A stretch of DNA of 64,000 bases, from IMG/VR virus record IMGVR_UViG_3300005253_002057, positions 1-64,000 of that record, one strand, 5' to 3'. Position numbers and translations under genes: made by a program. The notes below the pieces were generated by a model. That model worked only from the letters and a program-made list of their open reading frames with translations. It was not told where the DNA came from and searched no databases. Below are positions 10,265 to 62,073 of the stretch, piece after piece. This stretch comes from a virus. Every line of letters begins with the position of its first letter. Within the stretch, counting starts at the first letter, position 1.

Positions 10265-10293
10265 ATTATACACCATTTTTGATGCCCTGTCAA
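10265..10293 (-). promoter_or_regulatory. sigma70-type promoter
   Basis: TTGACA-17 nt-TATAAT on the minus strand, intergenic. Confidence 0.9.
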
Positions 10294-11393
10294 GTCGTCT
10301 TTTGATTATGATCTTATTGTTATGGCTTCTCTTCATCTTCTTTTAGAAGAGCATTTCCTGGGCTGCCAGCTTTAAGCCATCTGTAGAAGACACCGATCAT
10401 TCTGGTCTTAAAGTCTTTATTGGGTATACTCATTCTATAGGTGCTTGCTATCTCGTAGCTTGGAAAGTCTACATCCCCAGCAACTTCTAGTAATGACTCT
10501 AGGCTAGTGTTTGAATAGTATCCAGGACATTGTCTTGTAGCTTGCCCTTTTATAGGAGAGGATACTGATAACTCTGGGTCATCATCTATATGGAAGTGTA
10601 CAGGAGGGGGCAAGCTACACTTCGTTTGTAGTTTAATAAATCTCGCTTCCAGACTACGCTGCATGTTGTCAGTCATCTGCTTCTCCTAGATCATTACATA
10701 ATTCTGATTACTTTTTTCGGTATGCGTGAAAAGAAGTCTTGTCAGACCTTTTACTATCTTCCAGAGCGTCTCTGTATCCCTGTTCATGTCCTCGCTTGTA
10801 TTTTTCCTCTAGTTCAAGAGTAATGGGTCTTCTAAGTTTTATAGATATTGCTATATAGAACACTCCTGCTACGAGTACTGTGCTTACTGTTACACAGAGA
10901 GCAACTAGAACTAGAAGGGGAATGGAGATGGGCTCAATTATATACATCTACACTCCTGGCTGATCTATTAAGTCTCCTAGACCATTACATCCTTCTGACT
11001 TGCAAGTTATAAGATGTGCATCTACTCCACACTCAAATGTTTCTCCCTCTATGTTCTGTTTAATTTCTCCGCAGGAGGCTGCTGCAGATACTCTACATGG
11101 ACAGTACCCTCTGTCTTCTATTACAATTTCTTTTCTTCTTTGTCTTCTTTCTCTATAATGCCTGAACAGAGACCAGGATGTTATTAGCCAGAACAGTATG
11201 GCGCTTATGTTTACTAGACTATTAACTACTTCTTCATAGATCATAGTGCTAGTCTGTCGTTATTATGTAATTTGAAGACCATTACTTTCTCCTGTGCCAC
11301 AAGCTGTATAGATAGTCTGTTGCTGTAGTTATTATTATGCCAATTCCCACTCCTAGTAATAGAAAGCTTACTTCCCTAGACCACATATCTATA

Positions 11394-12371
11394 CTAGTCC
11401 GTTGCTAACACACAGATTGCATACGCCCATAAGTCCCACCTCTGTCCTGAGCTGCTTCCGTTGTTTACTGCCCTAACTCTCCAACCTCTACCGTCTAGTG
11501 CTGGAAAGTTCTCCAGTATACTTATGTTGGGTATATTAGCTACTAGGCCGCCTCCGGTTACTACTCTTGGAGCAGTGCACTCTGCTTCTAGTGACTTAGT
11601 AACACTCTTAGTTAAATCACTAGCTAGTACTCTTTCCCAGCCTTCTAAGGGTCCTGAGTTTCCAGTGGAGCCCTTGTCCCCTTCTTTACCTCTTAAGCCT
11701 CTAGGTCCTGTTGGTCCTCTTTCTCCTGTGTCTCCTTTATCTCCAGCAGGTCCTATCTTTCCTGTTTCTCCAGGCTCACCTCTAGGTCCTCCTGGCTCTC
11801 CAGAGTCTCCTTTGAATTGTAATCTTATTTTAGATGGTACTGAGTCTGGTAGGTCTTCCCAGGTTAAATCTTCTGGTGTTATTATCTCTGAAGGCCAAGG
11901 GCTAGGGCCTAATTCTAGGGTTGAATAAAATCCAGCATACAGCTGAGGTATATCTAAAGACTCTACTGGGTCTAGAACCTCGTACTCTACACTTTCTAAT
12001 TCTATTATTCTTGTTTGTAGAGCATATAGTTGATCTTGTAAATCTTTCTCCACGTTTGTGTTGCTGTGAGTGTGGTTCAAGATGGTGTCTTCCATAAGAT
12101 CATCCACTAAGGAATCTAGGTAGGTTAGATCTATTGCTCCTACAGCTCCAGGCACTCCTGGATTCCCTGGCTGTCCTTGAAGTCCTATGGCTCCTCTAGG
12201 ACCAGGTTCTCCTTGAGCTCCTTGAGGCCCACTTGTAGGAGACCTACTAGGTTCAGCTAAGCAAGCTCCTGTAAGCCCTACTATTGAGGTGATTAAGAAT
12301 AGTAGTGTTACTGGCCACTTGAGTTTATGGTAGTTCAATAAAAACCTCGTCCTTATCATTCCTGAGTCCAT
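11394..12371 (-). CDS. collagen-like (G-X-Y) putative lipoprotein
   Basis: hydrophobic leader ending LTGAC (lipobox-like), two GXY tracts, C-terminal C...VTGGG...W.V.A...YAIC domain. Confidence 0.8.
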   Translation of the reverse strand: MDSGMIRTRFLLNYHKLKWPVTLLFLITSIVGLTGACLAEPSRSPTSGPQGAQGEPGPRGAIGLQGQPGNPGVPGAVGAIDLTYLDSLVDDLMEDTILNHTHSNTNVEKDLQDQLYALQTRIIELESVEYEVLDPVESLDIPQLYAGFYSTLELGPSPWPSEIITPEDLTWEDLPDSVPSKIRLQFKGDSGEPGGPRGEPGETGKIGPAGDKGDTGERGPTGPRGLRGKEGDKGSTGNSGPLEGWERVLASDLTKSVTKSLEAECTAPRVVTGGGLVANIPNISILENFPALDGRGWRVRAVNNGSSSGQRWDLWAYAICVLATD

Positions 12372-12837
12372 AGTTACTTAGGTAGGTGAAGGAGTCTCTT
12401 ATCCATAGTGCGTCTTGAAGGGCGTTGTGTTTATCTTTGGACTGTTCTGGGAATCTAATATCTCCTAGTAACATAGAGATCTGTTTCAGGTCATAACAAT
12501 ACTTAGGCCAGGTTGAAGGTAGATTTAACATTCCTCCGTATAGTCTACATAGTACTACCCAGTCGTAGGCTGAGAAGTATCCATAGAATACTGGATTCTT
12601 ATCCTTCTCCATCCAGCGGTGTAAGTGGTATCTTATTTGACTAAGAGTTTCTCTAGCAACTGTAGGAGCAAGTTGAGGGATTACATTCTCCATTAGCCAG
12701 GGGTTGTTGATTGGAGGAGTGAACTCACTGGATATAGCGTAGAAGCATCTACTATCTTCTGATACTACTGCTATAGATATTAGTTCTATTCCTCCCTTAG
12801 CATGCTCGTTGAATTCCGTGTCGAAGAAATATCTCAT
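12325..12837 (-). CDS. DEDD 3'-5' exonuclease (RNase AS/Rv2179c-like)
   Basis: start re-called at MRYFFDTEF (overlaps the upstream stop); LISIAVV, AYDWV, HNALQDA motifs. Confidence 0.88.
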   Translation of the reverse strand: MRYFFDTEFNEHAKGGIELISIAVVSEDSRCFYAISSEFTPPINNPWLMENVIPQLAPTVARETLSQIRYHLHRWMEKDKNPVFYGYFSAYDWVVLCRLYGGMLNLPSTWPKYCYDLKQISMLLGDIRFPEQSKDKHNALQDALWIRDSFTYLSNYGLRNDKDEVFIELP

Positions 12838-15811: not shown

Positions 15812-15813
15812 CT

Positions 15814-18800
15814 CTAGTATACCTTAAGCCTGAGGATGGTCTTCTGGGCTACGAACTTAGGTCCCCACCAGCCTCTCCAGGTCTTTGTCTGGCAGTATAT
15901 TTCTAGTGGGTCTTCTAGTTTTAGCACTCTTGCTAGCCAGCATGAGAAGGTGCTTAGGGCGAACTCTGGGTCTTCAAGAGCTGCATACTCTTCGTATGCT
16001 TCTCTTATGGAATCCTTGAGTACTTGAGTGGATGAATCTAGTCTTTCTTGTGCAGCATCTAGCCAGCGGGCAGAGTCATTGTGCAGCTGGTTCCTTAAAA
16101 GTACCCTCTGCCAAGGCTGCTCTATTCTAGTTGCTGTTGTAGTCATTGTACTCGTCATCGTGCTCTCCTTCAAGTAGCGCATCTATTAGATGGTCTCCAC
16201 TGTCTGGAATTCTATCTGGGAATGGTAAGTCATCCCAGTAAGTGAGCTCAGCTATAAAGGTTGCTAAGGGTCGACCGTTCACTAGAATGTCGGGATACTT
16301 TCCTTGTTCCTCCCTTCTTTGACAGTAGGCACATGAGTCATTTGCAAAGATTGCTGCTACAACTTTATCCTCTGTGGACATTTCAGACCCACACTTTGAA
16401 CAGGTCATTAGATGCGGCCCTGTCTGGCTAGTACTTCTTCGTTAACTTCTACTAACTCAGCTCGGAGCTCATCTACTGGGCATCCGAAGGACTCGGATTC
16501 TTTTACCTGCTCCTTAAGCTCCCGCTGTCTATTTAAGAGTTCTTTAACTGTTCTTTGATTAGGAGCTCTCCCTGAATAGATCACCGTGCTCTCCTCTAAG
16601 TGAGTAAAGGGCTGCTGTAGATACTTAAGTCCACGGTGGCTTACGCAACGTCGTTCTCCTTTTTACCTACTTAATAACTAATCCTACTAAGCCATGAGAT
16701 ACGGCTTAGATTCTAGGACTACGGCCCCAGAATAGGGATGAAGATCGCCGGAGACGAAGTGTGTTTATATAGCCTGGGCTGCGATGATGTACTCATATTA
16801 TGTTAACTCCTTTCCTTTCACGTGCTTAAGGGCCCCAGAATTACTTAAGAACAAGCATATTGGTTATAGACTTATTCTTACTGTAAAGCTTTTTCATTAA
16901 GAAATCATGTACTGAGCTGTATTGCTTTCTAGTCCTCTCGTCTCTACTTTCCTGGGCTTGTCTACTAGCCATCTCATCCCAGGAGCCTGCGTGAAAGGCA
17001 CTTACTGCACTTAAAGATGTAGCGTAGATTCGTCTCTTTGCTTCTAGCAGCCATTGGGCTACGTAGTGTCTATCGTTTTCTAATTTTCTTTCTTCGTGAG
17101 TCATGGTATATGAACCTCATTCATGCCTTCATTATAACACACGATGTCAAGCTTTGTTCCTGTTTCTATCTAACCTGATTTCTTCTTCTGGTAAATTTCT
17201 TCTGAGTACTTAAGCCACATTCCAATTACTGCCCATAGATGGTTTGTAAGGTGATCTACTATACCTTCCACAGGTATCTCATTCTGGGCAGCGTACTCAA
17301 AGCCTATCTTTACATGCTCCTTGAGCTCCTCTTTAGAAGGCATTATTTACTCCGTTTGAATGGAATCTTGATGCTGGTACTTTGTACACTCTTCTATATC
17401 CCCTGGAACTAGAGAGTTAATGTACCGTAGGGCTTGCTCTATGGCAGTTCTTTGGGCTAATAACTCCCCAGAAACATGTCTAGCAGCAGACTCTAATGTT
17501 GGATGAGCCCCTCTCTTGCATGATGTAAGGGCAGAAGCTAGTGCTGTAGGGTTAATGTTTTCTTTGTTAATATGGTAAGGCATATCCAGTGCTAGTCCTT
17601 TCAGTCGTTGAAGACGTGAATCTCTTGCTCACACTTCTCGCACATATAAGTGCGCTCCTCAATTCCTCCTGCATAGTCTTCATTCTTCTTGTCGCGTAAG
17701 AAGTGAGCATTGTGGCTACACTTAGGACACTTAATGTCTGAAGGCCAGAATCCTACTGGAAAGCCAAGGGTAGAAGCCTCCACTTCTATCTCGTCAGGGA
17801 CATCGCTGATTATGAATCTGCAAGTCATAGTTTACTCCAGTCCGTTAAGCTGTCTCCATTCTTTCCACGTTACTAGCTTGATGTTCTCTGACATGTGAGT
17901 TGCTTTGGGGTCGCTAGTTGATCTCCCACTTCCCCAAGCATCTGCATCTAGCTCTGCTAGTAGCTTCTGGTTGTCCTCCTCTGAGTTAGGCTCACCGGTA
18001 ACTTTTATCCAGCCACTGCCGCACTTCTCCCTGAAGTATCCGTCTGTATCATTACCTCCTGTGTACTTAACTAGCTCACGATAACCTACGAAGAATTTTT
18101 CTTCAGTCATCTAGAGCTCTCCTAACCTATCTCCAGTTGCTTATCCTGCAATTCTTCCAGCTCAAGATTAGGTTGAGGCAGAGGCTCAGGTCCGTGATGT
18201 CCTGGCTTCAGGTAGTCGTGGATTGAGTCCGCAATGGTCCTCAACTGCGCTAAAGATAGGAACACCGATATGTCTCCTAGAACTAGGAGATGAACTATTC
18301 GCTTCTCCTTTCCAACTTCCATAAGCTGGGTTCTTACTTCATCGTCCTCTTGTAGATGCGTAGTAACGCTAGTGTTGGGCATAACTACTCCTTTTAACAG
18401 ATACTCTGGTAAACTTCTGATGTCAAAAACAGTGAGTCCCCCTCTCCTTTCACTTTGACTGTTGGTAGTATGTGAAGAAATACTCTGTAGCCTCCAAGGG
18501 GTCTATCATCTGATAAACCTTCAGGGAGGAAGAAGTATGTGTTAATGAAAGGGCCTGGAAGAAGTTCTGTGTCTTCTATCTGATAGATTTCTTCGTCATC
18601 TCCCAGTATGTGGTAGATCTTGTGGAACTCGTCCTCTGTAAAGTTACTTGGAACGAAGGCTCTCTTATAGTCCTGCCAATCGTCCCAGCCTCCTAACTGG
18701 GCTTCCTCGTCTGTAAGAATCCCCTCTCCGAGACGATAGAGAGTGAGCTGCTTAGCATAATCCTCAGCTATACGCTCGTTATAGTAACGAAGGTTTGCTA

Positions 18801-21630
18801 GCTGGTCTTCAGTCAGTCCGTAGCCGGGTTCTTTAGTCATGGCTAGACCTGCACCTTCTTTATTCTTGGAGTTTTCTCCGTGTGTTCTCCATAGACTTCT
18901 CTTGAGTCCCAGCCTATGTCTGCTAGATAAATAACTGCTGGCCCTTGCCTTATTGTCCAATCAATAGTGGCTATCACCTCGCTTTCCTGCAAATTATTTT
19001 CTGCACGATAAGTCTCCATCTCCGACAGGAGCTTGTTCACTTGTCTTATTGTCCAGTTCTTCATCTATACCCCCTCGTCTGCTTACTTAAAGTGGCTAGT
19101 AGCTTAGGTCAAGAAGTGCTAAGGCTTCCAGCTCGTCGTCTGCTGTAGGAAACTCTGCCGTTCCTTCGTTTATAAGGGCCGCTACTTGATCGATAGTGAC
19201 TGGTCTTACAAAGGCTACGCTTTCCCCCAGTTCGGTGAGTCTCCTCCTAGCTTTCTCTTCATCTTCAGCTCTCACTAACCAGAAAACCTCCTCGTCCGCT
19301 CCCACTTTGTAGAACTGTAGATGAGCCTTTCCAGATTGCTTGTCTATCATTGCTTGCTCTCCTTCTTTAGACTCATTGCTATCCGTGGTGTCCGCATCCG
19401 ATGCTGCTTTCCTGCTCTTTTTCGAAGTCGAAGGAATGAAGACAGAGTAGACCTGGAGATTGCTCGGAAAGTGTCTTAAGAGTCTGCATCATTTCTTCTA
19501 GAGGTCTCTTCTTACCGTCAGCAGTTTTCTTGGCTAGATTAACGGTAAGTACTACAGAGTTATCTGTCTCAGATACGTTTACTACTAGCTCGGCGTAGGC
19601 TAGTTCCTGGTTGTTGAGAAAGATGCTTCTACAGAAGGGACACTTGCTGCTTCCCTTTTCTCCACACTTAGTGCAAGCTACCTTTGCCATCAGAGCACTC
19701 CTTTATTTCTTCCCTTTACTCAATCATGCTAAGTGTTACTGGCTCAAACCAAGCGTAGCCACACTCTCTGTCTGAGCAGTATATGACTTCCTCTCCGACG
19801 TATCCACCTCCTGACAGAAGCAGTCCTTTGCATGTAGGGCACCTAGCCTCAGGTCTTCCATGCACTCGCTGGTAGGCCTTATCGAACTGGGTCGTGGTAA
19901 GTCCTGTTATGTGCTCAAAAAGCTTGTACACGTCTTTTGATGAGTGTTCCTGTGATTCATCTAGCCTAAAAAGCTGTGCTCCTGCTTCTGTAGCTTCTAG
20001 CCACATTGCTAGTCCCTCATGTAGCGTGATCCTTCTAAGATCTACGTACATAATTCTCTCAGTGTAGCTGTAGGGATCGTGCTGAGAGCCCTCACTACCA
20101 TGCTGCATATCTAGGCTTCTCATGCTTGCTCCTTTCTACTCCTAGTATCCACCCAGTATCTCAAAGGAGAGCTTGTGAAAAGATGCTGTGAGATACTAGA
20201 GGGAGTCTTTGAGCTGAAGAGTTCTTACACTCGGCTTCTTCTCCCAAGAGTGCATAAGCTATTCATATTGTAGGTCTCCCTAAATCTACGTCATTATTAC
20301 CTCCTTTATACCTGCCCGTCTGCTTTAGCCCCTACGTAGGCCCAGGTTCTTTGAGCCTCTCTATAAGACTTTAGCATCTCATTGCACAGATGCATAAACT
20401 CCATCCACTGGTGACAGTATATGCAGTGAACTGTATATCTATTACCCAGACTAGTTTTCACGCTACTCCTTAGCTGTTTATGCAGATGAAAGCAAATTGC
20501 TCAGGGCTTTTCGTTTCCAGAATGCCTTCCATAGCTCCTTCTGAGAATTGCCCTATGAGCTTGTACTCTGTGGAGGCATTCTCCTCCATGCGCTTGCCAG
20601 CTACTAGGTCCATTAGCAGGCTATAGGCCTGGCTAGGGTCCTCAGCCTGTACAAGCCAGTCTCGCTCCCCTTCTGGGCTAAGCTCAGTTATCTGTACAAA
20701 CACTCGCTTGCTCCTTATGTCACTCGTCTGCTAGATGATTCCCCAGATGGATTCTTCTGTAGCCCCCAGCATCTCTTCTATGCCAGAGTGCACTGCTCCT
20801 GAGTCCCCTTCTTCCAGCTCGAGCTTCCAGCTCTGAAGCTGACTACGAAGAGCCTTACGAGCACCTTCGTATAGGCGGGCCCGTTCAGCAGCTTCAAACT
20901 CCCTAGCCTCTTGCTTTTCTGCGTGCTTAAGCATAGCTTCCCTGGATTTGCTACACACTTGCTTGCTCCTTTGCTAGCTGGCTGGCTATTCTTCTTCTTC
21001 TAGGTCAATGTGGGTCTCTGGGTCAAGCTCATCGAGCATGTCTGATAACCACTCAGGTGTCATTAGCGGTGACTCCTATCCCTAGCGTCTCGGTGTCTTG
21101 GTCTGTTGCTTGCTAGCTCATGCCCCTGCCGGTAGCGGTTTAGGGTTGCTTATGCTCCGATGCCGTGACTACTCGTCGTCTTCGTCTGTCTTGCGGTCCT
21201 TACCCCTGAGCTCGACGACTCCCTGCTCGACCAAGATCCGCGTGTTCGCTACAGCGTTCTCGCCTTCCTCTGCGAACTCGACTACCAGCAATTCTATGGC
21301 TGCTGACAACCTTGCTCTCAAGCCGGTGTACTGCTCGGTCTTGCGGACCTGATTCCAGGTGGTGACCCTCAGCCTACGCTCGTGGTCTCCCCCTGCTTTT
21401 GCGGCTGGTGCTATCAGCACGCGACGCATGGCGCTCTGCTTCTGGATTTGAGCTATGCGTTTCTCATCGGCCTCTTTCGTGCTGATGCTGTACTGGGCCA
21501 TAGCTACAAGCGCGTCTGGCGTCATGTGGATTGCTTCCGCTGCGGCTTGTAAAGCCTCTGGGTCGCTCTCCTGCGCTGCTAGCACTTTTTCCGCCATGTC
21601 TGCCATGTCTTGTGTCTGTACGTCTGCCAT
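15814..21630 (-). other. cluster of small early/host-takeover hypothetical genes
   Basis: about 20 co-oriented short ORFs with strong GGAG Shine-Dalgarno sites; no recognisable domains except Zn fingers. Confidence 0.65.
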
Positions 21631-21757
21631 TGTGAAACTCCTTCAAGCACAGCAGGAGCATGAGCAAGCAAGCAACATATTCAATTGTTAATGTGCGATG
21701 CACATATATGCGTTTCGCATTGTTGTGCGTTTGCGGATTTGCGTTTTCCGCATTTCC

Positions 21758-21786
21758 ATATTATTTCATTCCGAAAAATTATGCAA
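21758..21786 (-). promoter_or_regulatory. possible promoter of the leftward early operon
   Basis: TTGCAT-17-TAATAT on the minus strand. Confidence 0.4.
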
Positions 21787-22010
21787 ATTCTTGTTTTCCC
21801 ACACTTTTTTGAGAGAAATGTTATTTTTTCTACAAAAAACACACAAAAAGTTACGAAAATCGTAACAATAAATGGATTTGGTGTGTTTTTTCCACAAAAA
21901 AAATTGCTAGACGATTCTTGTTTATGTTATTTTATGTTGTTATATAACTGCTTTATGTTAAACTAGCATTGTTTGTTTTAATTTCCATATAAATTCCTCA
22001 ACTTGTATTA

Positions 22011-22080
22011 TTTAGTATTGTTTATTATTCTTTAGCATTATTTATGTTACTTTATTTTAATTTATCCTAATTTATCCTTG
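22011..22080. repeat. 7 x 10-bp phased TTTA-N6 units
   Basis: TTTA begins at 22011, 22021, 22031, 22041, 22051, 22061 and 22071. Confidence 0.8.
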
Positions 22081-22090
22081 CCCCTTTTAA

Positions 22091-22310
22091 TTCATGAATT
22101 TCTTTTCATGAAATACTTTTATGTAATCTGCTTTCATGAAAAGTAAAACATGAAATTTAATTCATGAATCATTTACAAATGAATTTTATTTCATGAATTT
22201 TGTTTCATGATTTTTATTTCAATGTTTTTTATTTCATGAAATAAGATACATGAATTTCTTTTCATGAATAAATTTTCAATAAAAGATTTTCATATTTTTA
22301 ATTTCATGAA
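22091..22310. repeat. about 16 units of 14 bp centred on the palindrome TTCATGAA
   Basis: perfect copies at 22091, 22105, 22133, 22161, 22190, 22233, 22261 and 22303, degenerate copies in the intervening 14-15 bp registers. Confidence 0.9.
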
Positions 22311-22357
22311 AATATGAATCCTATTATAATACTATATAGTCTATAATAGCTTTGAAC

Positions 22358-22404
22358 CTGTTAATAGGGTCTGTTAATAGCCCTGTTAATAGGGGTGTTA
22401 ATAG
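22358..22404 (+). repeat. 4 iteron-like direct repeats (C/G)TGTTAATAG
   Basis: copies at 22358, 22371, 22383 and 22395, with degenerate copies flanking. Confidence 0.85.
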
Positions 22405-22483
22405 CAAAATAAAAGACTGTAAATAGCTCTATGAATAGAACTATCAACAGTCTTATAAATAGCCTTACTAATTATTTTCTATT

Positions 22484-22530
22484 AAAAGAGAAAGGGTGCA
22501 AGCTGCCCTAATTGCTCGCACCCTTCTCTA
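22484..22530 (-). terminator. intrinsic terminator of 22591..22977
   Basis: GAGAAAGGGTGC...GCACCCTTCTC stem followed by TTTT on the minus strand. Confidence 0.7.
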
Positions 22531-22590
22531 TCACGGCTCCTGCAATCTCCCGCTAAAAGATATGCAGGTCTACTTGGAGGAGGTCTGTAT

Positions 22591-22977
22591 TTAGGCTGCT
22601 ACTGCTGCCTCAGCCTTGTCTGCAGCTGCCTTCCTGGCAACTTTTCTGGCCTCGGACTTCACTTTCCTGGCTGCGGTCTTGACATCCTTGAGGTCGTCTC
22701 CGGCTGCCATTCTAGCCTTGCCTGCCTCGATTGCGTCCTTCCAAGGCTGTGAGAACTTGGAGTCGTTCTGGATGAGGTAAATTCCCCAGCGCTCTGCGTC
22801 TCTGTTCTCTCTGACTGCCTTCTTCTTTGCGAAGTACTTGCCGAAGTCTTCCAGCATGCTTTCGCCGCCGAGCTCTTCCGCTATCTTGGCCCTAAGCTCT
22901 GGGGACATTGAGTCCATTATTGAGGCTCCTGTGCTTGCCTGGTTTTCGTCTGCTACTTTTTCTGCCTTGCTAGTCAT
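22591..22977 (-). CDS. hypothetical protein with K/A-rich tail (monocistronic; DNA-binding candidate)
   Basis: own consensus promoter, GGAG SD and terminator; tail KTAARKVKSEARKVARKAAA. Confidence 0.6.
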   Translation of the reverse strand: MTSKAEKVADENQASTGASIMDSMSPELRAKIAEELGGESMLEDFGKYFAKKKAVRENRDAERWGIYLIQNDSKFSQPWKDAIEAGKARMAAGDDLKDVKTAARKVKSEARKVARKAAADKAEAAVAA

Positions 22978-23030
22978 CTTCTGCTCCTGCTTTCTGCCCT
23001 TGATAGGGCCCTTGGTTTGAATGTAATTTC

Positions 23031-23059
23031 ATTATACACCCTTTTTTGGATGTTGTCAA
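23031..23059 (-). promoter_or_regulatory. sigma70-type promoter
   Basis: TTGACA-17-TATAAT on the minus strand. Confidence 0.9.
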
Positions 23060-23112
23060 TGCTTTTTTGGGTCAATTTTCCATCAATTCCCTTGATTCCA
23101 ATTTTGGTGGAA

Positions 23113-23358
23113 TTATGGACGTTTGGATGATATTGAAGGATTGAGTATTTCATTCTCCATAAGTTCTAGAGCCTTTCTAAAGCTCTTTTGCTTACCTGCA
23201 GCCCTTTCATTAGATCTTCTTACAGCCTCTACTCCAGATTCTGTTCCTCTGTAGCGTCTCTGAGATCGAAGCCCATTTCTGAACTTGTCCTCATTGTAAG
23301 AAATCTTTTTTCGTATTCTACTTCTTACTTGCTGTTCTGTAGTTACTAATCTAGGCAT
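23113..23358 (-). CDS. small basic protein
   Basis: R/K-rich 81 aa ORF with GGGGA SD, downstream of a promoter. Confidence 0.55.
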   Translation of the reverse strand: MPRLVTTEQQVRSRIRKKISYNEDKFRNGLRSQRRYRGTESGVEAVRRSNERAAGKQKSFRKALELMENEILNPSISSKRP

Positions 23359-23417
23359 ACTTTCCCCCAGCCACTAGTTTGGAGTCCCCTCAGCGTGCCT
23401 CGTATGTGTATATGTGT

Positions 23418-23446
23418 ATTATAACGTATATATAAGGTAAGGTCAA
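23418..23446 (-). promoter_or_regulatory. leftward sigma70-type promoter
   Basis: TTGACC-17-TATAAT on the minus strand. Confidence 0.85.
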
Positions 23447-23456
23447 GTTTTCAAAC

Positions 23457-23485
23457 TTGACAGTGGTGTGTTTCTGGTGTATAAT
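23457..23485 (+). promoter_or_regulatory. rightward sigma70-type promoter
   Basis: TTGACA-17-TATAAT. Confidence 0.9.
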
Positions 23486-23491
23486 GCTGGC

Positions 23492-23923
23492 ATGAGTAAG
23501 ATATCAGTGAAAATAAAATATCTAAGTCCGCAGGCAATACTACCAGTTTTAGCCACTTCAGGAAGTGCATGCTTTGATGTAAGTACACCTTATCATGTAG
23601 TTATACTAGGAAGGAGTATGGCCAAAGTAGGGACTGGGTTAGCCTTCGAAGTTCCAGTAGGCTATGAGATGGTTATAAGACCAAGGGGAGGATTATCTAG
23701 TAAAGGTATTACTATAGCTAATTCTCCTGGTACTTTAGATAGTGACTATAGAGGTGAGCTTTTTATTATTCTGCATAATACCACAATGGAGCCTTATCAA
23801 TTTACTCCTGGAGCCAGAATAGCGCAGATTGCTGTAAAGAAAGTTTTAGAGATAGAGTTTCTAGACCTGCCTTTTACTGATACAGAGAGAGGTATAGGAG
23901 CCTTTGGTAGTACAGGAGTATAG
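23492..23923 (+). CDS. dut: trimeric dUTPase
   Basis: GSACFD, RPRGG, NSPGTLDSDYRGE, RIAQ and RGIGAFGSTG motifs; start re-called at the leaderless ATG 23492. Confidence 0.96.
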   Translation: MSKISVKIKYLSPQAILPVLATSGSACFDVSTPYHVVILGRSMAKVGTGLAFEVPVGYEMVIRPRGGLSSKGITIANSPGTLDSDYRGELFIILHNTTMEPYQFTPGARIAQIAVKKVLEIEFLDLPFTDTERGIGAFGSTGV

Positions 23924-23924
23924 T

Positions 23925-24477
23925 ATGGAAATAGGTATTGCTATAGGCTTACTATTTGTTGCTGCAGTATATAGTAAGATAGCCCATAGCATAGGTCTTA
24001 CTACTTGGATAGCAGATGGGCTGCCTACAATCTTTGTATTCTTTGTTGCTATATTTATTATAATTAGAGCTCTAATTCTTATAGGGTCTGTATCTGGTAA
24101 TGGAACTTACTAGCAGCTTAATAGAGATACTCCCAGTAATATTTTCCTTTCTAGTTATTGTAGTTGCTGCAGCTGTATATGCAAGCTTCACTAAGTGATG
24201 GATGCACTAATTTATCTTATAGACTTACTTCCCTTTAATCCAGCTGTTTTTCTTATCTTTGGATTTATATTCTTAATAGTAGTAAGGATTTTATTAATTA
24301 AGCTAGTAATTGGTATATTCAAATTAGCCATAGGTGTAATAGGGGCTTTCTTTGGTAGAATTTAATTCTTTAGATACTGCATTTAGGCTACTGGGCACTA
24401 TATTTAGTTTCCCCCCTGTATTCTTAGGTATTATGTTACTTATTATATTCTTTGCTATAAGAGGACGAACTAGTTAA
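23925..24477 (+). CDS. four tandem small membrane peptides (23925-24113, 24100-24198, 24198-24365, 24352-24477)
   Basis: manually translated overlapping ORFs, each hydrophobic with an (L/F)P-hydrophobic motif. Confidence 0.55.
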
Positions 24478-24487
24478 GGCTGTGAAC

Positions 24488-24516
24488 TTGACATTTATAC
24501 CACATTCATATACAAT
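24488..24516 (+). promoter_or_regulatory. sigma70-type promoter of the replication/modification operon
   Basis: TTGACA-17-TACAAT. Confidence 0.85.
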
Positions 24517-24544
24517 GTATGGACAGTCGAAATTGGAGAAATAG

Positions 24545-25582
24545 ATGACCAGCCCTGCACCAAAGCCTCCCGCTATCAAAAAGGCCCCAGCAAAAGCAAC
24601 TTCCCTGGAAGAACTCATAACCCCCAATGATGAAGTGGAGTTTGCCCCTCGTTTACTTATGGCTAACTTTGGAGGCCCTGGCTCTTTCAAAACTAGAATA
24701 TTTGCTACGGCTTGTGAAGTAGAAGAAACCTCCCCCCTCCTTTATATCCCCTATGAACCTATACCTACTAGCATTCCAGATTTACTTGCAAGAGATGACT
24801 TTGATGTTCTTGAGCCAAGATTAAAGGCTGGTACTAAGAGTCTCTATAAATTTACTATAGAGGATATACTTCCTTTAATTGCGAAGTCTCAAGGAAAGTA
24901 TAGAGCTTACTTCTTTGATGGTGTCTGCTCCTTAATGATGGACAGTGCTTTTGCTGATGCTAGAAGAGAATGTCATATAGCTGATTTATCTGCAGCATCT
25001 AGAAATTCAAAGCCCCCCACTCATTCTGAGGACTATCCTTGTAGACAGTGCTATAACAGACTTGTTCTTAAGGCTCAGATATTTATTTCTGGGATACGAG
25101 ATTTATGGAAGTCAAATCCTGATGGTGCTGCACACATACTTATGTCCTTTAGAGAGAAGAACCATCAGACTGTTGAAGGAAAGGGCGACGCAGCTATTAC
25201 TATAAGTACCTTCAAGGCTGATCTCCCAGCAGCTACTCTGAGAATGATGACTCATGATATTCAGACATACTTTAGATTACAGTCAAGCTGGGGACCTGTT
25301 AAAGATGAGAAAGGGCAGCCTGTAAGGGGGGAAGGTGGAAGAGGCTTTGTGAGTGATTATAGACTTAATATTACTGCTGCTAGAAGTGATGCAGTTGATG
25401 CAAGGGATAACTCAGGAAAACTTAAAGGGGCTGTTAATCTAGGAGGAAGGGATATACACTTCTTCGAGATATATAATAGAATGTATCCAGGACAAGGAAC
25501 TAGAAAAGTAAAGGCAGAAGGGTTTGAGTTTTCAGTATTAGAAGAACCTGACTCAAAGGATAAGGCTGAGGCTACAGTTTAA
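24545..25582 (+). CDS. P-loop ATPase, Sak4/AAA_24-like recombinase
   Basis: Walker A GGPGSFKT, Walker B YFFDG; adjacent to an SSB-like gene, with a Cas4-like gene downstream. Confidence 0.7.
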   Translation: MTSPAPKPPAIKKAPAKATSLEELITPNDEVEFAPRLLMANFGGPGSFKTRIFATACEVEETSPLLYIPYEPIPTSIPDLLARDDFDVLEPRLKAGTKSLYKFTIEDILPLIAKSQGKYRAYFFDGVCSLMMDSAFADARRECHIADLSAASRNSKPPTHSEDYPCRQCYNRLVLKAQIFISGIRDLWKSNPDGAAHILMSFREKNHQTVEGKGDAAITISTFKADLPAATLRMMTHDIQTYFRLQSSWGPVKDEKGQPVRGEGGRGFVSDYRLNITAARSDAVDARDNSGKLKGAVNLGGRDIHFFEIYNRMYPGQGTRKVKAEGFEFSVLEEPDSKDKAEATV

Positions 25583-25609
25583 CCCCAAGAATTGTTACAA
25601 GGAGGTAAC

Positions 25610-26032
25610 ATGCTTTCACGAGACCAGATGAAAGGACTTCCCCCAATACCTCAGGGGGAACATAGGTTCACAGTTTTGAGGGCTCAGAAAAGGCCCTCTT
25701 CCACAGGAAATCCCTCAGTTGAGGTAATCTTGGCTGTACCAGAGGACACGGAGACTCTAGGTCCAGAGTTCGTAGCAAGGGATACAAAGGTTACACTCTC
25801 ACTTCAGGAGCAGGCGGCTTTCACCTTCGGAAACTTCGTAGCAGCAGTGAGTGGCTATGCCACTGTTGACGAGTACTTCGACGGAGAAGATATCGAGGAC
25901 TTCGATGCTAGCGCCTGGGATCCTGAGCCAGTAGTAGGTATGCAGATCATCGGGGTGGTCTCGCATCAGCTCTTCCAGGGTAGGACGACTCACCAGATCA
26001 GAGTCTTTAAGCCTGTCCCTGTCCCCGCCTAA
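25610..26032 (+). CDS. ssDNA-binding protein (DUF669-like)
   Basis: PIPQGEHRFTV...SSTGNP pattern; strong AGGAGGT SD before ATG 25610; follows the Sak4-like gene. Confidence 0.65.
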   Translation: MLSRDQMKGLPPIPQGEHRFTVLRAQKRPSSTGNPSVEVILAVPEDTETLGPEFVARDTKVTLSLQEQAAFTFGNFVAAVSGYATVDEYFDGEDIEDFDASAWDPEPVVGMQIIGVVSHQLFQGRTTHQIRVFKPVPVPA

Positions 26033-26088
26033 AGTTTAACACCGGTGCTGTAGCCTCAGCCCTATCTTTTGATTTAGGATAAAATTAA

Positions 26089-26805
26089 GTGAAAAGTCTT
26101 GTAATGTTAAGTGGAGGACTAGATTCAAGTACTAGTCTTGCTCGAGCTATTAGTCTTGGAGATAAGTGTGAAGCACTTTTTATTGACTATGGACAGCGCT
26201 CCTTAGTTGAGTATGAGTCTGCTGAGCTTATAGCTGAATACTATAAAGTAAGACTTGTTCCTGTAGAGTGCAGAGGGATGCTGCTTAAGTCATCTCTTAT
26301 AAAGTCTGACAGTAATGAACTAAAGGAATTCTCAGTAGATGATGAGTTTACTGCTGAGGGTGATGCTTATGTACCAGGTAGAAACTTGATGCTAGTAGGT
26401 ATAGGCTTAGCCTATGCAGAGTCAAGAAAGATGGATAGATTACTACTAGGTATAATGGGTGTTGAAGAAGAAGATGAAGACGACCCTATCTTAAAAGATC
26501 AACACCCTAAGTTTCTAAAAGCAGTTGAACAAGCTGCACTCTTTGCTAAAGATCCAGTTAAAGTAGATAGTTTATTACTTGATCTTACTTGGAGAAGGCA
26601 AGTTATAACTTTAGCAGCTGAACTAAAAGTTCCTCTAGGTTATACTTATTCTTGTTACTGGGGAAAGCTAGCACACTGTGGTACTTGTGAGGCATGTGTA
26701 ATTAGAATTTTATCTTTTAAGAGGGCTGGATATAAAGATCCATCCAGATACTCAGAAGAACAGGAATGGGAAGGATGTAAAGAATGGCCAATAGAGCTAC
26801 AGTAA
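26089..26805 (+). CDS. queC: 7-cyano-7-deazaguanine synthase
   Basis: SGGLDS, DYGQR, YVPGRN, TYSCY...HCGTCEAC. Confidence 0.95.
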   Translation: MKSLVMLSGGLDSSTSLARAISLGDKCEALFIDYGQRSLVEYESAELIAEYYKVRLVPVECRGMLLKSSLIKSDSNELKEFSVDDEFTAEGDAYVPGRNLMLVGIGLAYAESRKMDRLLLGIMGVEEEDEDDPILKDQHPKFLKAVEQAALFAKDPVKVDSLLLDLTWRRQVITLAAELKVPLGYTYSCYWGKLAHCGTCEACVIRILSFKRAGYKDPSRYSEEQEWEGCKEWPIELQ

Positions 26806-27224
26806 GTTATAGCTGGGAATTCTCAGCAGCTCATAGACTGATGAATCACCCTGGTAAGTGTAAGAGACTTCATGGTCATAACTATTATGTCACCATAGAA
26901 GTAGAAGGAGCTATGGATAGAGAAACTGGAATGGTGATTGACTTCTCTATACTTAAAGACGCATCCAGGCATGTAGACGAGATTATGGATCATATGACTC
27001 TTCTACAAAGTACAGATCCTGTAGCAGAAGCCCTTGCTACTATTCAGCTAGAGGGAGATATAGTCTTCTTTTCAGTTCCTCCTACAGTCGAGGCTATATG
27101 TGTACTAGTAGGAGAAGAGATTAAAATTGCCTTATCTAAGTACTCCCCTGCAACTACTTATCCTCGACTTACTAAGGTCATTATAAAGGAAACAGAGACT
27201 GGAGTAGCAAGCATAACATTATGA
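26784..27224 (+). CDS. queD: 6-carboxytetrahydropterin synthase
   Basis: FSAAHRL...GKCKRLHGHNY, GMVIDF, PTVE, ET motifs. Confidence 0.95.
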   Translation: MANRATVSYSWEFSAAHRLMNHPGKCKRLHGHNYYVTIEVEGAMDRETGMVIDFSILKDASRHVDEIMDHMTLLQSTDPVAEALATIQLEGDIVFFSVPPTVEAICVLVGEEIKIALSKYSPATTYPRLTKVIIKETETGVASITL

Positions 27225-28561: not shown

Positions 28562-28565
28562 CGCT

Positions 28566-29243
28566 ATGACTCTTATAGACACTGAGATTAAGGTAAGCGA
28601 GTTATTTACTTCTATACAAGGGGAAGGTAACTATGCTGGCTTTCCTACAACTTTTATTCGATTATTTGGGTGTCCTCTTCGCTGTTCTTGGTGTGATAGC
28701 AAATATACTTGGGATAATAAAAGTAGATGGGAGCTATATTCTTTACAGGATATACTAAGGTATACACTCAGACAAAAGTCTAAATATGTATGCTTAACTG
28801 GTGGTGAGCCACTAGCAGACTATAATCTAGAACCTAGTAGATTAATTTGTGAAAGAATTAGTCCGCACCGCAGTATTTCTGTAGAAACTTCTGGCTGCTT
28901 CATGTTACCTGGGTGGAGAAACTTGGTAGAGAGCTGGGTCTGGGATGTTAAACTTCCTGGGTCTGGTATGTTTGAAGAGAATGAATTAGATGAATTATCT
29001 AAGCTAGGTTTTAAGGATCAAGTTAAATTTATAGTAAAGGATTCCACTGACTTTGAGCAGGCTCTAGCTATATACAAAGAGTATAAGCTATCTTCAGTTA
29101 GTGGCTTGACAATACTATGGGCTCCGGTATATAATGAGTTAGATTTAAAGTGGTTTGCAGCTAAAGTGATTGCCCTGGGAGAAAATAATAGATTAAGCAT
29201 ACAAGTTCACAAATTAATTTGGAGAGAGAAAAGGGGAAAGTAA
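28566..29243 (+). CDS. queE: 7-carboxy-7-deazaguanine synthase (radical SAM)
   Basis: ELFTSIQGEG, FIRLFGCPLRCSWCDS, LTGGEP, RLSIQVHK. Confidence 0.96.
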   Translation: MTLIDTEIKVSELFTSIQGEGNYAGFPTTFIRLFGCPLRCSWCDSKYTWDNKSRWELYSLQDILRYTLRQKSKYVCLTGGEPLADYNLEPSRLICERISPHRSISVETSGCFMLPGWRNLVESWVWDVKLPGSGMFEENELDELSKLGFKDQVKFIVKDSTDFEQALAIYKEYKLSSVSGLTILWAPVYNELDLKWFAAKVIALGENNRLSIQVHKLIWREKRGK

Positions 29244-30290: not shown

Positions 30291-30292
30291 AC

Positions 30293-34890: not shown

Positions 34891-34931
34891 TAATGACCAA
34901 GGTTTACCATTGTCGCAGTTTCTCATATAAT
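34891..34931 (+). promoter_or_regulatory. late promoter with conserved TAATGACCAAGGTTTA element
   Basis: TTTACC-17-TATAAT; the 16-mer recurs exactly at 44889. Confidence 0.65.
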
Positions 34932-42418: not shown

Positions 42419-42422
42419 TAAT

Positions 42423-44891: not shown

Positions 44892-44923
44892 TGACCAAGG
44901 TTTATCCCTGCCACAGCCAAGAC

Positions 44924-44952
44924 TTGACACTTGGCGCAATCTGATGTATAAT
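44924..44952 (+). promoter_or_regulatory. sigma70-type promoter of the assembly operon
   Basis: TTGACA-17-TATAAT preceded by TAATGACCAAGGTTTA (44889-44904). Confidence 0.9.
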
Positions 44953-44961
44953 TAATATATA

Positions 44962-45504
44962 ATGATTTTAACTAATAATCCAGCTGCTATACAACTACTC
45001 CTTGTGATAAGTGTACTCTTTACTGCAGGATTAATTCTAGCCTTATACTTTGGCTTTAGAAGATGGATAGCAGCTAGAATGTTAGTATGGGTAATACACC
45101 CAGATAGAAGACTAAGCAAACATATGGTTAGACCAGAATCTGACGGTAATATAAGAATACCTAAGATAGGGTCTAGATTTCTTTTCACTCCTGCTGATGT
45201 ATTCTACTCCAGTCTTCCTTTAGTAGGGGAACCAATTCCAGCAATAATGTGTCACATAGATAAACCTGAGGCGCTGGATATAATAGGGCTAGTTCCCAAA
45301 GAAGGTATAACTTCTACTGAGTTATCAAGTGCTTTCGATAATAGAATGTTAGAGCAGTGGGTAAGAGCTACTAAAGAGCCAGGATTGGCTAGATTAAGGT
45401 CTACTTTGGTAATAGGATTAGCAGCCGTGCTGCTTGCAGTACTAGGTTCTACATACTTTATTGCTACCTCAGTATTAGGTCCTATAAGCCTACTGGAAAG
45501 ATAA
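44962..45504 (+). CDS. membrane protein with TM at each end (assembly factor candidate)
   Basis: hydrophobic helices at both termini; upstream of the ATPase. Confidence 0.6.
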   Translation: MILTNNPAAIQLLLVISVLFTAGLILALYFGFRRWIAARMLVWVIHPDRRLSKHMVRPESDGNIRIPKIGSRFLFTPADVFYSSLPLVGEPIPAIMCHIDKPEALDIIGLVPKEGITSTELSSAFDNRMLEQWVRATKEPGLARLRSTLVIGLAAVLLAVLGSTYFIATSVLGPISLLER

Positions 45505-45507
45505 AAA

Positions 45508-45987: not shown

Positions 45988-46524
45988 GTGGCTATAACAG
46001 TGATAACTGGCCCTATGGGAAGTGGAAAGACTACTCTTATGACTGCAGTAGGAGTACTGGCCCATGAACTAGATGGAGTTAGGATATTCTGTAACTATCG
46101 CTTGACTGGTATAGAACATACCTTTTTTAGACCTACTGAGTTTGCCGACTTGATGGAGGCTGAGGAATTAAATAATTGCATAGTTCTATTAGACGAGGCA
46201 TATCTTCTTATGGATTCCCGTACTTCTGGTGCTAGGATAAATAGATTATTTTCCGCTTTTACTTACCAAGCAAGAAAAAGAGGAGTAGACTTACTAGTAG
46301 TTACTCATCATACAGATCATATAGATAAGCGAATAAGAAGAGCCATGTCTTATAGATGGAGGCCTAGATTTAATCCAACTACTCATGTAATAACTGTATA
46401 CTCAAAGGCTGAAGAAGTAGGGCATAGGTCTAGATTCAAGATACAAGCAGATAAGTTCTGGCCTTACTTTGACACTAATGAGATTCCTATTATAAGCAAG
46501 CAGTTAAAGAGGGTAGTATTTTAA
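45988..46524 (+). CDS. Zot/pI-like morphogenesis (genome extrusion/packaging) ATPase
   Basis: GPMGSGKT, IFCNY, VLLDEAY...DSR, QARKRGVDLLVVTH...IDKRIR. Confidence 0.85.
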   Translation: MAITVITGPMGSGKTTLMTAVGVLAHELDGVRIFCNYRLTGIEHTFFRPTEFADLMEAEELNNCIVLLDEAYLLMDSRTSGARINRLFSAFTYQARKRGVDLLVVTHHTDHIDKRIRRAMSYRWRPRFNPTTHVITVYSKAEEVGHRSRFKIQADKFWPYFDTNEIPIISKQLKRVVF

Positions 46525-59461: not shown

Positions 59462-59713
59462 ATGGCTAAAAGAAAAAGAAAACGTCCTCCCTTAAACATA
59501 ACTGCCGAAAGAGCCCTCGATGAAGGTATCAAGTTTACTAAGAATGTTGTAGACTATAGACAAGCAGGAAGATCAAGAAGACGTTGCTACAACTGCATAT
59601 ATTTTGAAGAAGGACCTAACAGAAGCGCTGTTGGTACTTGCGAAGTAGTAGAAGGACCGATAAAGGGCTACATGGTAAGCGATATCTTTGAAGCAAGACA
59701 GGAGTTGATGTAA
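59462..59713 (+). CDS. HiPIP-like small protein lacking the fourth Cys
   Basis: KxTKxxVDYR...CYNCIYF...CEVVEGPI...SDIF. Confidence 0.6.
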   Translation: MAKRKRKRPPLNITAERALDEGIKFTKNVVDYRQAGRSRRRCYNCIYFEEGPNRSAVGTCEVVEGPIKGYMVSDIFEARQELM

Positions 59714-62044
59714 TGGCTTCCCTTGAACTAGAACCTGTTCAAGTAGGTATTATACTAGAAGTACTAGAGCAGAGCCTACAGTCTAATAAAGTTAAAAGAC
59801 AGCTTGGTACCCACTTCTTTGCAATGATTCCAGAGTTAATAGCTAATATAAAGACTCAGTCTAGGCAGTAACTAATGGCCAAAAAATCATTTCTTACCAT
59901 TGCTAAAGAACAAGGAAAGGCTACGTTCTCCATCAGAGGAAGTAAAGCAGCTAAGAGTATAGCAAAGAAAAGACCCTCTGTAAATCTTAGGGATAATCGC
60001 TTTCTTAGAAGTATGGGGGAAGGATTCATAGACGTCTTCAGTGGAAAGAGCAGGGACAGAACCAAGAAAAGGCTTGTAAGAAAGTAGTGTCTAAGAAATT
60101 TAGATTAACAGAGAGTGGCTTAGATGCAGCTAGCGATTTAGCCATAAGATTTGATAACTTTCTAAAGGCTGGAAAACACGCAAATATTCTAAATGCTACT
60201 CAAGAAGATCAAGACATGGTAGGACTAGCCGCTCTACTAGCTACAATAGAAGTAAAAGACCCCGAAACTTCGTCTGATAGAGGATTAACTTTTAGAACTA
60301 TAATTAGATCTATGGGAGCAGATTCAAAGATCTCGTTATGGAAAGAAAATGATATACGAAGATTCATGAGGCTAGCCGCAGAGGCTGGCTGGCTAGTGGA
60401 ATCAGATGATGATGAAGATTTAGCCCCTAGACCAAGAAGAAGATCAGGCAGAAGGTTGTTTACAAGATGATGGGAAGAAGTCCTAAAAGACGTACAAAAA
60501 GAAAGTCCATGAGACCCAAGAAGCTTAGCATGAAAAATGCCTTCAAGGGAATCAGAACTGTAGGAGCACCTTCTGGTAGGGCAATGAAGAGAGTAGGAGA
60601 TGCTATGGCGGCTGGTACTAGAATAAGAAAAAAGAAGGGCTCCAAGATGATGAAGACTCCTAGGTTCATATAGAAAGGATTATCTAAGATGAAATTCTAT
60701 CGACTAACTGGAAAAACAGAGACTAAGAGCCCTACAGATCCTGGAGTAGCTGCAGTAGTAGGGGCAGTAATAGCTGATGGACTGGCTCACGGAGAAGACA
60801 GTGTAAGCTTCAGTGATGTCTCTAAACAGCTGCGACACCATGATCTTAGCGACACTGAAATAAGAAGGCTACTAAATCTAGCTGACAAGCAAGGTTTTAT
60901 CTATGAAGACGACAATGATTAGGTTAATCTAATGCCAGAAGTTACGGCAGAAGTTTTCTACAGAGGAACAATAAATCAGGAAAAAGATAACCAGCTTCTA
61001 GCCATAGCCAAACGCTTCAGTGGGGAATGGATAGGGTCTGGAGTTGACACCCCTATGAAAGGAAAGCAACAAGACAGGAACAATCAGTTTGAGTTCCCTT
61101 CTAGAGGTAGGGCCTTAGGATTCTTTAAGGCTGTAAGAAAGAAAATAAAAGGCATAGGAAAAATGTTCGTAAGGAAAGATAATGGCTGAGCCAGTATTTA
61201 GACTAGCCACAGAAGTGGACGTAGGAAACGTTCAAGGTAACATAAAGTCTGTTGACTTTGAGTCAATAAATAGGCTAGAGAATGCCTTCGGACGAGAAGC
61301 TTTCACGTTAACCGAAGCCTTAGATATGACTGGGGATAGACAGTCTATAAGAAGGCTTAGAAACGTAAGGCTTATAATTTCTGCTGAGAAGTGAAATGGG
61401 AAGAAAAAGAAAGCCCCCATCACCTGTAGAAGAAGAAGTACTAAGAAGAGAAAGATTTAGAGAAATAAAGGCTCTAAAAGCAAAGCTTTCTCGTCTAGTA
61501 ACTAAGGAAGATAGAGTAGACTTTCTAGATGATACTCTTAGAGAGGTACTTAAGGGAGCTACACCTGACGATGACGTACAGGTACTTCAAATAGTGGCAA
61601 AAGAATTTAGATTACTTCCTGAGCTAAGTGAGTTAGTATCTAGATTTGACAGAGAGGCACAAAGATTAGTAAGGACTGGAAACCTCACTATACTAGAAGG
61701 AGTAAGGGAAGGAGAACTTAGACCTGAACCTTTAACTTCTTCTCAGACAAAGACTAGAGCCCAAGCTTTAGAAGACAGAAAAGCGTTCTTGCGTAGGTTA
61801 CAGGAAAATCCTAGACTCAAGAGAGAGTTAGCCGAAGCTGCAGGGGCACCTAAAGTAGATATAGACAATCCTGTATCTGATATAGCAAGAATAATGACTG
61901 AGAGAAGAATAATAGAAGAACTAAGAAAGAAAGAAAAAAGACCTGTAGGTCCACTAACTGGAGTAGATGTGGAAGGAATAAAAGAAAGGGTAAGAAAACT
62001 AAGAGGTCTAAGAACATTTAGAAAGGGACCTTTCGATAAGTAAC

Positions 62045-62073
62045 TTGACATTATCATCAAGATGATGTATAAT
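62045..62073 (+). promoter_or_regulatory. sigma70-type promoter (leaderless ATG at 62080)
   Basis: TTGACA-17-TATAAT. Confidence 0.9.

Follow-up and report, generated by a model that had tools for sequence, protein, structure and literature searches.

Consensus sigma-70 promoters and predicted leaderless first genes in a virus from marine sediment

The window analyzed here comprises the first 64 kb of IMGVR_UViG_3300005253_002057, an 88,157-bp linear viral record from IMG/VR. Within it lie five exact copies of the bacterial sigma-70 promoter consensus, TTGACA-17-TATAAT, at 10265-10293(-), 23031-23059(-), 23457-23485(+), 44924-44952(+) and 62045-62073(+). A sixth exact copy is found outside the window, at position 75074(+) of the same 88-kb contig. 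The likely explanation for these sites and for the genes that follow them is that the housekeeping RNA polymerase holoenzyme of the host binds them and starts transcription at the ATG or within 3 nucleotides (nt) of it, producing a leaderless first cistron with Shine-Dalgarno-led genes downstream.

Six perfect promoters and the bases beside them

The five sites in the window had been proposed in an earlier note on this DNA, and all five are present as described. Their expected number in the window is 0.04, and none of 100 shuffles reached five. The note had also suggested a motif scan against shuffled sequence; that scan places the motifs far above chance, with six exact sites in intergenic DNA (8.9 kb of the contig) where 0.003-0.005 would be expected. 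Intergenic sequence makes up about 10% of the contig and contains all six of the exact 17-bp sites, each of them co-directional with the genes. Within the sigma-70 spacing of 17 +/- 1 bp, six sites match 12/12 at 17 bp and one at 18 bp. Full 12/12 matches number seven against 0.07 expected, and 11/12 matches number five against 2.1 expected. The one-mismatch copies reported at 23418(-) and 24488(+) are likewise genuine and read TTGACC-17-TATAAT and TTGACA-17-TACAAT, respectively. Two-mismatch sites show no excess (33 vs 38 expected), and sites with at least 9/12 matches are at or below chance in each comparison made (28 vs 32.6, 34 vs 39.6 and 36 vs 43.9). The distribution of match quality is bimodal in that the near-perfect classes are enriched and the weak classes are not. 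The observation of perfect promoters is confirmed as real, statistically overwhelming and mechanistically ordinary.

Compared pair by pair, the six sites have an identity of 1.00 in each hexamer and of 0.81 over the five spacer bases nearest the -10; the first 12 spacer bases reach only 0.29 and the flanks 0.27-0.35. Since the hexamers are conserved while spacers and flanks sit at random-level identity, the sites are not copies of a repeat but independently maintained functional sites. These values also bear on whether the sites could be repeated protein-binding or recombination sites, such as operator, packaging or replication signals, that happen to resemble promoters. Such a role would suit the extra bases beyond the hexamers that all six have in common, as well as the location of two sites in the strand-switch and repeat-array region near 22-23.5 kb. 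It is nevertheless very unlikely, since exact sigma-70 hexamers at the optimal 17 bp with unconserved spacers are unlike an operator, all of the sites face genes, and no further operator-like repeats were found.

Directly beside the -10 hexamer, (T/G)G(G/A)TG abuts TATAAT in all six perfect promoters, and AC precedes TTGACA in five of the six. The earlier note had recognized the common G(G/A)TGTATAAT in the exact sites, an observation that holds and now extends to the full set; a search of the literature for TGTATAAT brought up unrelated papers only. TGRTGTATAAT occurs four times in the window against 0.08 expected, with no others away from these promoters. What did not survive was the description of this element as an extended -10. 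Here the TG is at -14/-13, whereas the canonical TGnTATAAT requires it at -15/-14, where none of the perfect promoters has it; the scan column 'TG_before_second' reads 'no' at every exact site. In addition, the canonical TGNTATAAT is not enriched in the window (6 vs 3.5 expected) and never occurs at a perfect promoter.

To place the element among other viruses, an IMG/VR scan for TTGACA-N12-TGRTGTATAAT supplied a comparison set of at least 116 loci, and the comparison itself was made with the other perfect promoters in the scanned loci, which were not selected for TGRTG (115 distinct). Among the matches listed, TG stands at -15/-14 in 62 of these 115 and in none of the six here, the full TRTG is present in 35, and TG at -14/-13 is present in 16 (14%). 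Against those listed matches, finding it at -14/-13 in six of six is unusual (p ~7e-6). The shifted element also occurs in the T4-like marine myophage contigs L018 and L028, hence it is not unique to this virus. The latter contig (IMGVR_UViG_3300048593_000196) carries six near-identical cassettes, TTGACATTTGTTCTGAAATGATGTATAAT, in a 9-kb stretch, an array of the kind typical of early promoters; the cassettes include the shifted TG element.

The invariant, non-canonical TGRTG and the AC before the -35 suggest a specialized recognition surface, and about 45% of the genome lies unseen. It could be proposed, then, that a virus-encoded sigma factor or virus polymerase reads these sites instead of the host housekeeping holoenzyme. 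This is improbable, however, given that the hexamers and their spacing form the exact group 1 sigma consensus, that no Sigma70 or RNA polymerase family was matched among the roughly 90 open reading frames (ORFs) scanned, and that TGRTG also appears in unrelated T4-like contigs.

One canonical extended -10 does stand alone in an intergenic, co-directional position, TGTTATAAT at 17131-17150(-). TTGACA is only 8 nt upstream of TATAAT at this site, too close for a -35 role, and a 26-nt leader then leads to gene 16841-17104.

Predicted leaderless first cistrons

The bases between TATAAT and ATG number six at 10258, 23492 and 62080, seven at 75110 and nine at 44962, distances that put the -10 about 12 nt before the start and leave no room for a Shine-Dalgarno sequence. 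The first three had been described earlier as having an ATG 7 nt after the -10, which is accurate in the sense that the A is the seventh base; 44962 and 75110 are two near-leaderless cases beyond those three. The odds of finding an ATG 6-9 nt past the -10 in five of six perfect promoters by chance are about 3e-6. Transcription usually starts at position 7 after the -10. In these promoters that position is an A in five and a G in one, and therefore a purine in all six; at three sites it is itself the first base of the ATG, and at two it falls 1-3 nt ahead of the ATG.

That the proximal ATG is the true start of a real gene is indicated by codon scores, upstream stop codons and a structural homologue. 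In a codon-usage log-odds model trained on long ORFs, the five leaderless ORFs score positively in frame (+0.11 to +0.28) and negatively out of frame (-0.5 to -1.07). Upstream in-frame stops precede 10258 by 6 nt, 44962 by 9 nt and 75110 by 18 nt, and the first 60 codons offer no other start that is led by a Shine-Dalgarno sequence; the ORF at 10258 has no other start codon of any kind in that stretch. The dUTPase encoded from 23492 (MSKISVKIKYL...) aligns from its own residue 1 to residue 1 of the solved dUTPase 8y1q_A, and its N-terminus is thus fixed by homology. The 180-aa membrane protein starting at 44962 has a positional homologue in the distantly related contig L007, and the two align from residues 12 and 11, respectively, although this match is weak (E = 0.047). 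Every leaderless start codon is ATG.

Of 135 genes across the genome, 61% have a Shine-Dalgarno match of 4 nt or more ahead of them, compared with 18% of random positions, with a TAAGGAG core and a modal spacing of 6-7 nt. No other gene was found with a good -10 at 4-10 nt but without a perfect -35, and in the absence of any such '-10 only' leaderless gene the leaderless layout is tied to the perfect promoters. The arrangement is also uncommon in other viral contigs, where an ATG-led ORF follows 13 of 125 perfect promoters with TGRTG and 4 of 117 without it, among the matches listed; the five of six observed here differ from those 13 of 125 at p = 1.6e-4 (Fisher).

While the motif, its statistics, the geometry, the coding status and the start codons are direct observations, the actual starts, recognition by host RNA polymerase and leaderless translation are read from them. 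In the proposed mechanism, the perfect sites would serve as strong promoters for the group 1 sigma-70/SigA-type bacterial holoenzyme of the host and would split the genome, outward from a divergent control region near 23.4 kb, into two leftward and several rightward transcription units. At five of the six promoters, the first cistron would have a 5' untranslated region that is either absent or at most 1-3 nt in length. Since a Shine-Dalgarno sequence is impossible where there is no leader, translation of these first genes would be leaderless, with the ribosome binding a 5'-terminal AUG. Operon-internal genes, in turn, would be translated by way of ordinary TAAGGAG-type Shine-Dalgarno sites.

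The promoters begin 1-32 nt past the preceding stop codon, and hairpin-plus-T-run terminators in the window are not enriched over shuffles (19 vs 16, 20 vs 14.9 and 13 vs 11.7). Along with the A/T-rich surroundings of the ATGs, these two findings would be in keeping with real promoters whose first cistrons are translated mainly from read-through transcripts lacking a Shine-Dalgarno sequence, with the help of an unstructured A/U-rich region and protein S1, the proximity of the ATG being a matter of genome compaction. This seems unlikely, in part because the spacing peaks at 6 nt in three of the five cases, which corresponds to the modal start and a purine, and compaction would not fix a distance. 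Furthermore, the other genes of the genome use Shine-Dalgarno sequences, and the preceding stop codons are 36-70 nt upstream, too distant for coupling. If leaderless initiation is the main route, as favored here, transcription units probably still overlap by read-through; the first cistrons, having no ribosome-binding site in read-through RNA, would then be translatable mainly on the transcript from their own promoter.

Evidence for a bacterial rather than archaeal host

In a survey of leaderless genes by Zheng et al. (2011; PMC3160421), the TA-like signal of bacteria is -10-like and lies about 12 nt before the start codon, while the archaeal TA-like signal lies about 25-37 nt upstream of it. 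Three of the sites in this virus match the bacterial rule (PMC3160421), with 12 nt from the first T of TATAAT to the ATG. The stretch 24-40 nt upstream is occupied instead by TTGACA and a spacer that is not A/T-rich. A check for the archaeal B recognition element (BRE) and TATA box at operon starts, which the earlier note had called for, revealed no such promoters: TTTAWATA-like octamers with at most one mismatch occur 24-40 nt upstream in 2 of 37 operon-first genes, against 1.15 +/- 1.03 in shuffles. Two broader claims of that note gain support as well. Use of bacterial RNA polymerase by the host is suggested by the hexamers, the fixed 17-bp spacing, the intergenic and co-directional placement and the geometry, and an archaeal host is opposed by the distance between TATAAT and ATG, the lack of a TATA signal and the gene content.

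With respect to gene content, the presence of Bac_transf, Wzy_C and an OmpR/PhoB-type DNA-binding domain argues for a bacterial host. The best cultured matches of PolA are the Bacillus phages Nachito and SP-10, at 23-27% identity, and the nearest cultured relatives of PolA and SNF2 are all bacteriophages among the matches listed. The Septum_form family matched only Corynebacterium glutamicum among 14 control genomes, and the Septum_form-like domains of this virus may weakly hint at a host in the Actinobacteria. The TAAGGAG bias of the Shine-Dalgarno sites fits a 16S ribosomal RNA tail ending in CCUCCUUA, which is the bacterial form and counts as weak evidence. Terminator-like hairpins, not being enriched, favor neither domain.

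Many archaea have leaderless operon-first genes together with Shine-Dalgarno-led internal genes. The same pattern in this virus would be typical of an archaeal host as well, with TATAAT acting as the TATA box and the preceding bases as the BRE. The geometry contradicts this possibility, which is the most remote of those weighed here. TATAAT precedes the ATG by 6-9 nt and not by 25-37 nt (PMC3160421), and a start about 24 nt downstream of it would remove the N-terminus of the dUTPase and the only start codons of three ORFs. Moreover, archaeal initiation has no use for an invariant TTGACA 17 bp upstream, TTTAWATA is not enriched, and bacterial-type genes are present. The promoters and gene content support a bacterium rather than an archaeon as the host.

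Genome context, relatives and known systems

The sequencing runs that contain positions 20000-29900 of the window in full are marine-sediment metagenomes, all of them DNA contigs with no RNA run among them. The window has a GC (guanine plus cytosine) content of about 41%. Nearly all ORFs up to 23,358 are encoded on the minus strand and nearly all from 23,468 onward on the plus strand, and GC skew changes sign at the same place (~23.4 kb). Recognizable genes in the window include the dUTPase, an SNF2 helicase and a fusion of uracil-DNA glycosylase, exonuclease and PolA. They are accompanied by ThyX, radical-SAM enzymes, cpYpsA, a 3'-5' exoribonuclease-like protein, the queuosine-precursor genes QueC, QueD, a QueE-like enzyme and FolE, and a small Zot-like ATPase (45988-46524(+)). 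Beyond the window, the contig encodes nucleotide-sugar dehydrogenases, an epimerase, FkbM methyltransferases, a Bac_transf sugar transferase, an O-antigen-ligase-like Wzy_C protein and an OmpR-type Trans_reg_C protein. Across the 88 kb, nothing is recognizable as a capsid, portal or terminase gene, no lysin family was matched among the ORFs scanned, no transfer RNA genes were found, and six large right-arm proteins of 970, 840, 712, 1641, 468 and 495 aa (35585-56305(+)) have no Pfam or PHROG match.

Four perfect promoters in the window precede predicted leaderless genes. The promoter at 10265-10293(-), with TGGTG before its -10, is separated by TAAACA (6 nt) from the ATG at 10258 of a 113-aa ORF without a family match (9917-10258(-)), the first gene of an operon with the SNF2 helicase (8081-9913). 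At 23457-23485(+), TGGTG again precedes the -10 and GCTGGC (6 nt) leads to the ATG at 23492 of the 143-aa dUTPase gene (23492-23923(+)), residues 1-142 of which are covered by the 8y1q_A alignment. The promoter at 44924-44952(+) has TGATG before its -10 and 9 nt before the ATG at 44962. The near-leaderless ORF that it serves (44962-45504(+), 180 aa, predicted leader 0-3 nt) has an N-terminal membrane helix and heads the operon containing the Zot-like ATPase. Lastly, the promoter at 62045-62073(+) starts 1 nt past the stop codon of the preceding gene, has TGATG before its -10 and is followed by GTAATT (6 nt) and the ATG at 62080; this 90-aa ORF (62080-62352(+)) has no family match and heads a unit running into glycan-synthesis genes.

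The remaining promoters in the window are leadered or weaker. The perfect promoter at 23031-23059(-), with GGGTG before its -10, serves gene 22591-22977 through a leader of about 47 nt; the ATG of this gene, at 22977, is 53 nt past the -10 and has AGGAG as its Shine-Dalgarno sequence. The one-mismatch promoter TTGACC-17-TATAAT at 23418-23446(-) lies back to back with 23457(+) and serves an 81-aa Arg-rich gene (23113-23358) whose ATG is 59 nt past the -10, with a leader of about 55 nt and a Shine-Dalgarno sequence. The other, TTGACA-17-TACAAT at 24488-24516(+), is leadered as well, with GGAGA as the Shine-Dalgarno sequence before the ATG at 24545. The exact TTGACA-18-TATAAT at 29106-29135(+) has no TGRTG and falls within the 3' end of the QueE-like gene, where it is possibly an internal promoter for 29219 onward (FolE, a Cas4-like exonuclease and PolA). 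A weak candidate, TTTACC-17-TATAAT (10/12), is located at 34903-34931(+) in the gap after PolA, where it overlaps a box, AATGACCAAGGTTTA.

At the divergent control region, the -35 hexamers of 23446(-) and 23457(+) are 10 bp apart within a palindrome, GTCAAGTTT-TC-AAACTTGAC, at 23438-23462. Two polymerases probably compete for binding there; no operator-like repeats were found around these promoters. The 15-nt box AATGACCAAGGTTTA is present in exactly two copies, at 34892-34906 and 44890-44904(+), each opening a mini-ORF that starts with MTKVY (22 and 17 codons, respectively). The first copy overlaps the weak promoter at 34903, and the second ends 19 nt short of the perfect one at 44924. The box may be a regulator site or may encode a leader peptide.

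Three further genes deserve mention. The OmpR/PhoB-type Trans_reg_C protein beyond the window (179 aa, contig 78167-78706, L015:3167-3706) has no receiver domain and is a candidate virus-encoded activator of bacterial RNA polymerase. Adjoining the queuosine-precursor genes, the ORF at 30293-31309(+) matches the PHROG 'Cas4-domain exonuclease' (E = 8e-17) and has no TGT/DpdA family match, so an enzyme for inserting 7-deazaguanine into DNA is not identified at that locus. The gene at 27221-28561(+) encodes a 446-aa protein carrying two Septum_form-like (PF13845) stretches. Contigs of relatives in other sediment runs omit it, with joints at 27215->28599 and 27218->28564; an omission to within a few bases of the gene ends marks it as a recent insertion or deletion.

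Four DNA runs contain relatives that are 80-95% alike, including a contig spanning 23050-23526. Searches for close relatives found none in IMG/VR with the 712-aa protein or PolA and none in Joint Genome Institute (JGI) metagenomes with a 345-aa protein, and a literature search for a described lineage of this virus found nothing. Distant relatives were found by means of an alignment of Zot-like ATPase homologues; a profile search of genome contigs with the ATPase alignment gave only a Vibrio Zot-like match. One distant relative, G002, is a 109.6-kb record with a GC content of 40.7% that has nine proteins in common with this virus at 27-50% identity, including SNF2, QueC, QueD, FolE, PolA and the ATPase. 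Another, L007, is syntenic with 35.6-46.5 kb of the window, and GGGAGG precedes its positional homologue of the 44962 gene. No perfect promoters were found in the distant relatives G002, L007, L009 and L010. G002 does contain two 11/12 TTGACA-17 sites, at 1679(-) and 28700(-), with AGTTGAGC-TTGACA-GT and the canonical TRTG, which extends the sigma-70-type reading to the lineage. Both of these promoters are leadered: short dead-end ORFs come first, and the genes behind them are Shine-Dalgarno-led. Within the lineage, the perfect consensus, the shifted TG and the leaderless layout are particular to this virus.

Several points weigh against the combination of host holoenzyme and leaderless first cistrons. 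Neither G002 nor L007 has the leaderless layout or perfect promoters. Since terminators are not above chance, read-through transcripts that carry the first genes internally must exist. The transcription starts are predicted from promoter geometry, and the TGRTG element is non-canonical. Finally, CheckV estimates the 88,157-bp contig to be 55% complete, by which about 45% of the genome is missing.

For a virus almost without recognizable structural genes and otherwise difficult to classify, the promoters provide the cleanest sequence evidence on the domain of the host, which they place in the bacteria. They also imply that the entire genome, as far as it is visible, depends on host RNA polymerase for its transcription. 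Being consistently leaderless, the first genes point, though weakly, to a host from lineages in which such messages are well translated, and the promoter-ORF pairs are ready-made testable cassettes. The shifted TG is a minor point of interest for promoter recognition, and the findings as a whole leave knowledge of the mechanism unchanged. A more ambitious and rather doubtful interpretation would take the invariant TG element and the leaderless first cistrons as the signature of the transcription and translation apparatus of some bacterial lineage living in sediment, and the virus as part of a new lineage of large bacterial viruses wholly dependent on host RNA polymerase. If true, one candidate host would be a low-GC, Actinobacteriota- or Chloroflexota-like bacterium in which sigma region 3 reads the shifted extended -10 and ribosomes favor leaderless messages.

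Lytic phages such as T5, T7 (A1-A3), SPO1 and those of the T4 type have near-consensus, strong early promoters. Like these and the L028 array, this virus has several near-perfect sigma-70 copies, closer to consensus than host promoters usually are, with extra conserved bases beside the -10. In contrast to them, its spacers are unrelated, while L028 conserves the whole cassette and spacer, and its messages are predicted to be leaderless, while those of the lytic-phage early promoters are leadered. The TG directly upstream of the -10 resembles the canonical extended -10 or '-16 region' (TGnTATAAT, TRTGnTATAAT), but at -14/-13 it is one base closer. The combination of leaderless operon-first genes with Shine-Dalgarno-led internal genes is similar to that of archaeal leaderless transcripts; however, the element differs in position and sequence from the archaeal BRE/TATA (~26 nt upstream), and there is no TATA at -26.

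In the bacterial groups Actinobacteria and Deinococcus-Thermus, leaderless genes whose -10 lies about 12 nt ahead of the start codon are abundant (PMC3160421). This virus is like them in having TATAAT 12 nt before the ATG at three sites and no Shine-Dalgarno sequence. Most genes of those hosts, however, have TANNNT only and no clear -35, whereas the leaderless genes of the virus all have a perfect -35 and -10. The leaderless messages of lambda PRM-cI and of other phage repressor or controller genes, such as those of telomere phages (PMC4488713), and of restriction-modification C proteins (PMC2275141) start at the A of the AUG, as is predicted here. Those messages come from single, weak, regulated promoters of regulatory genes, whereas here the layout is the rule for the strongest promoters (five of six), with a dUTPase and a membrane protein among the products. 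Sigma-70 promoters and leaderless messages are textbook features long known in phages, and they occur in this virus in an unusually clean and consistent form.

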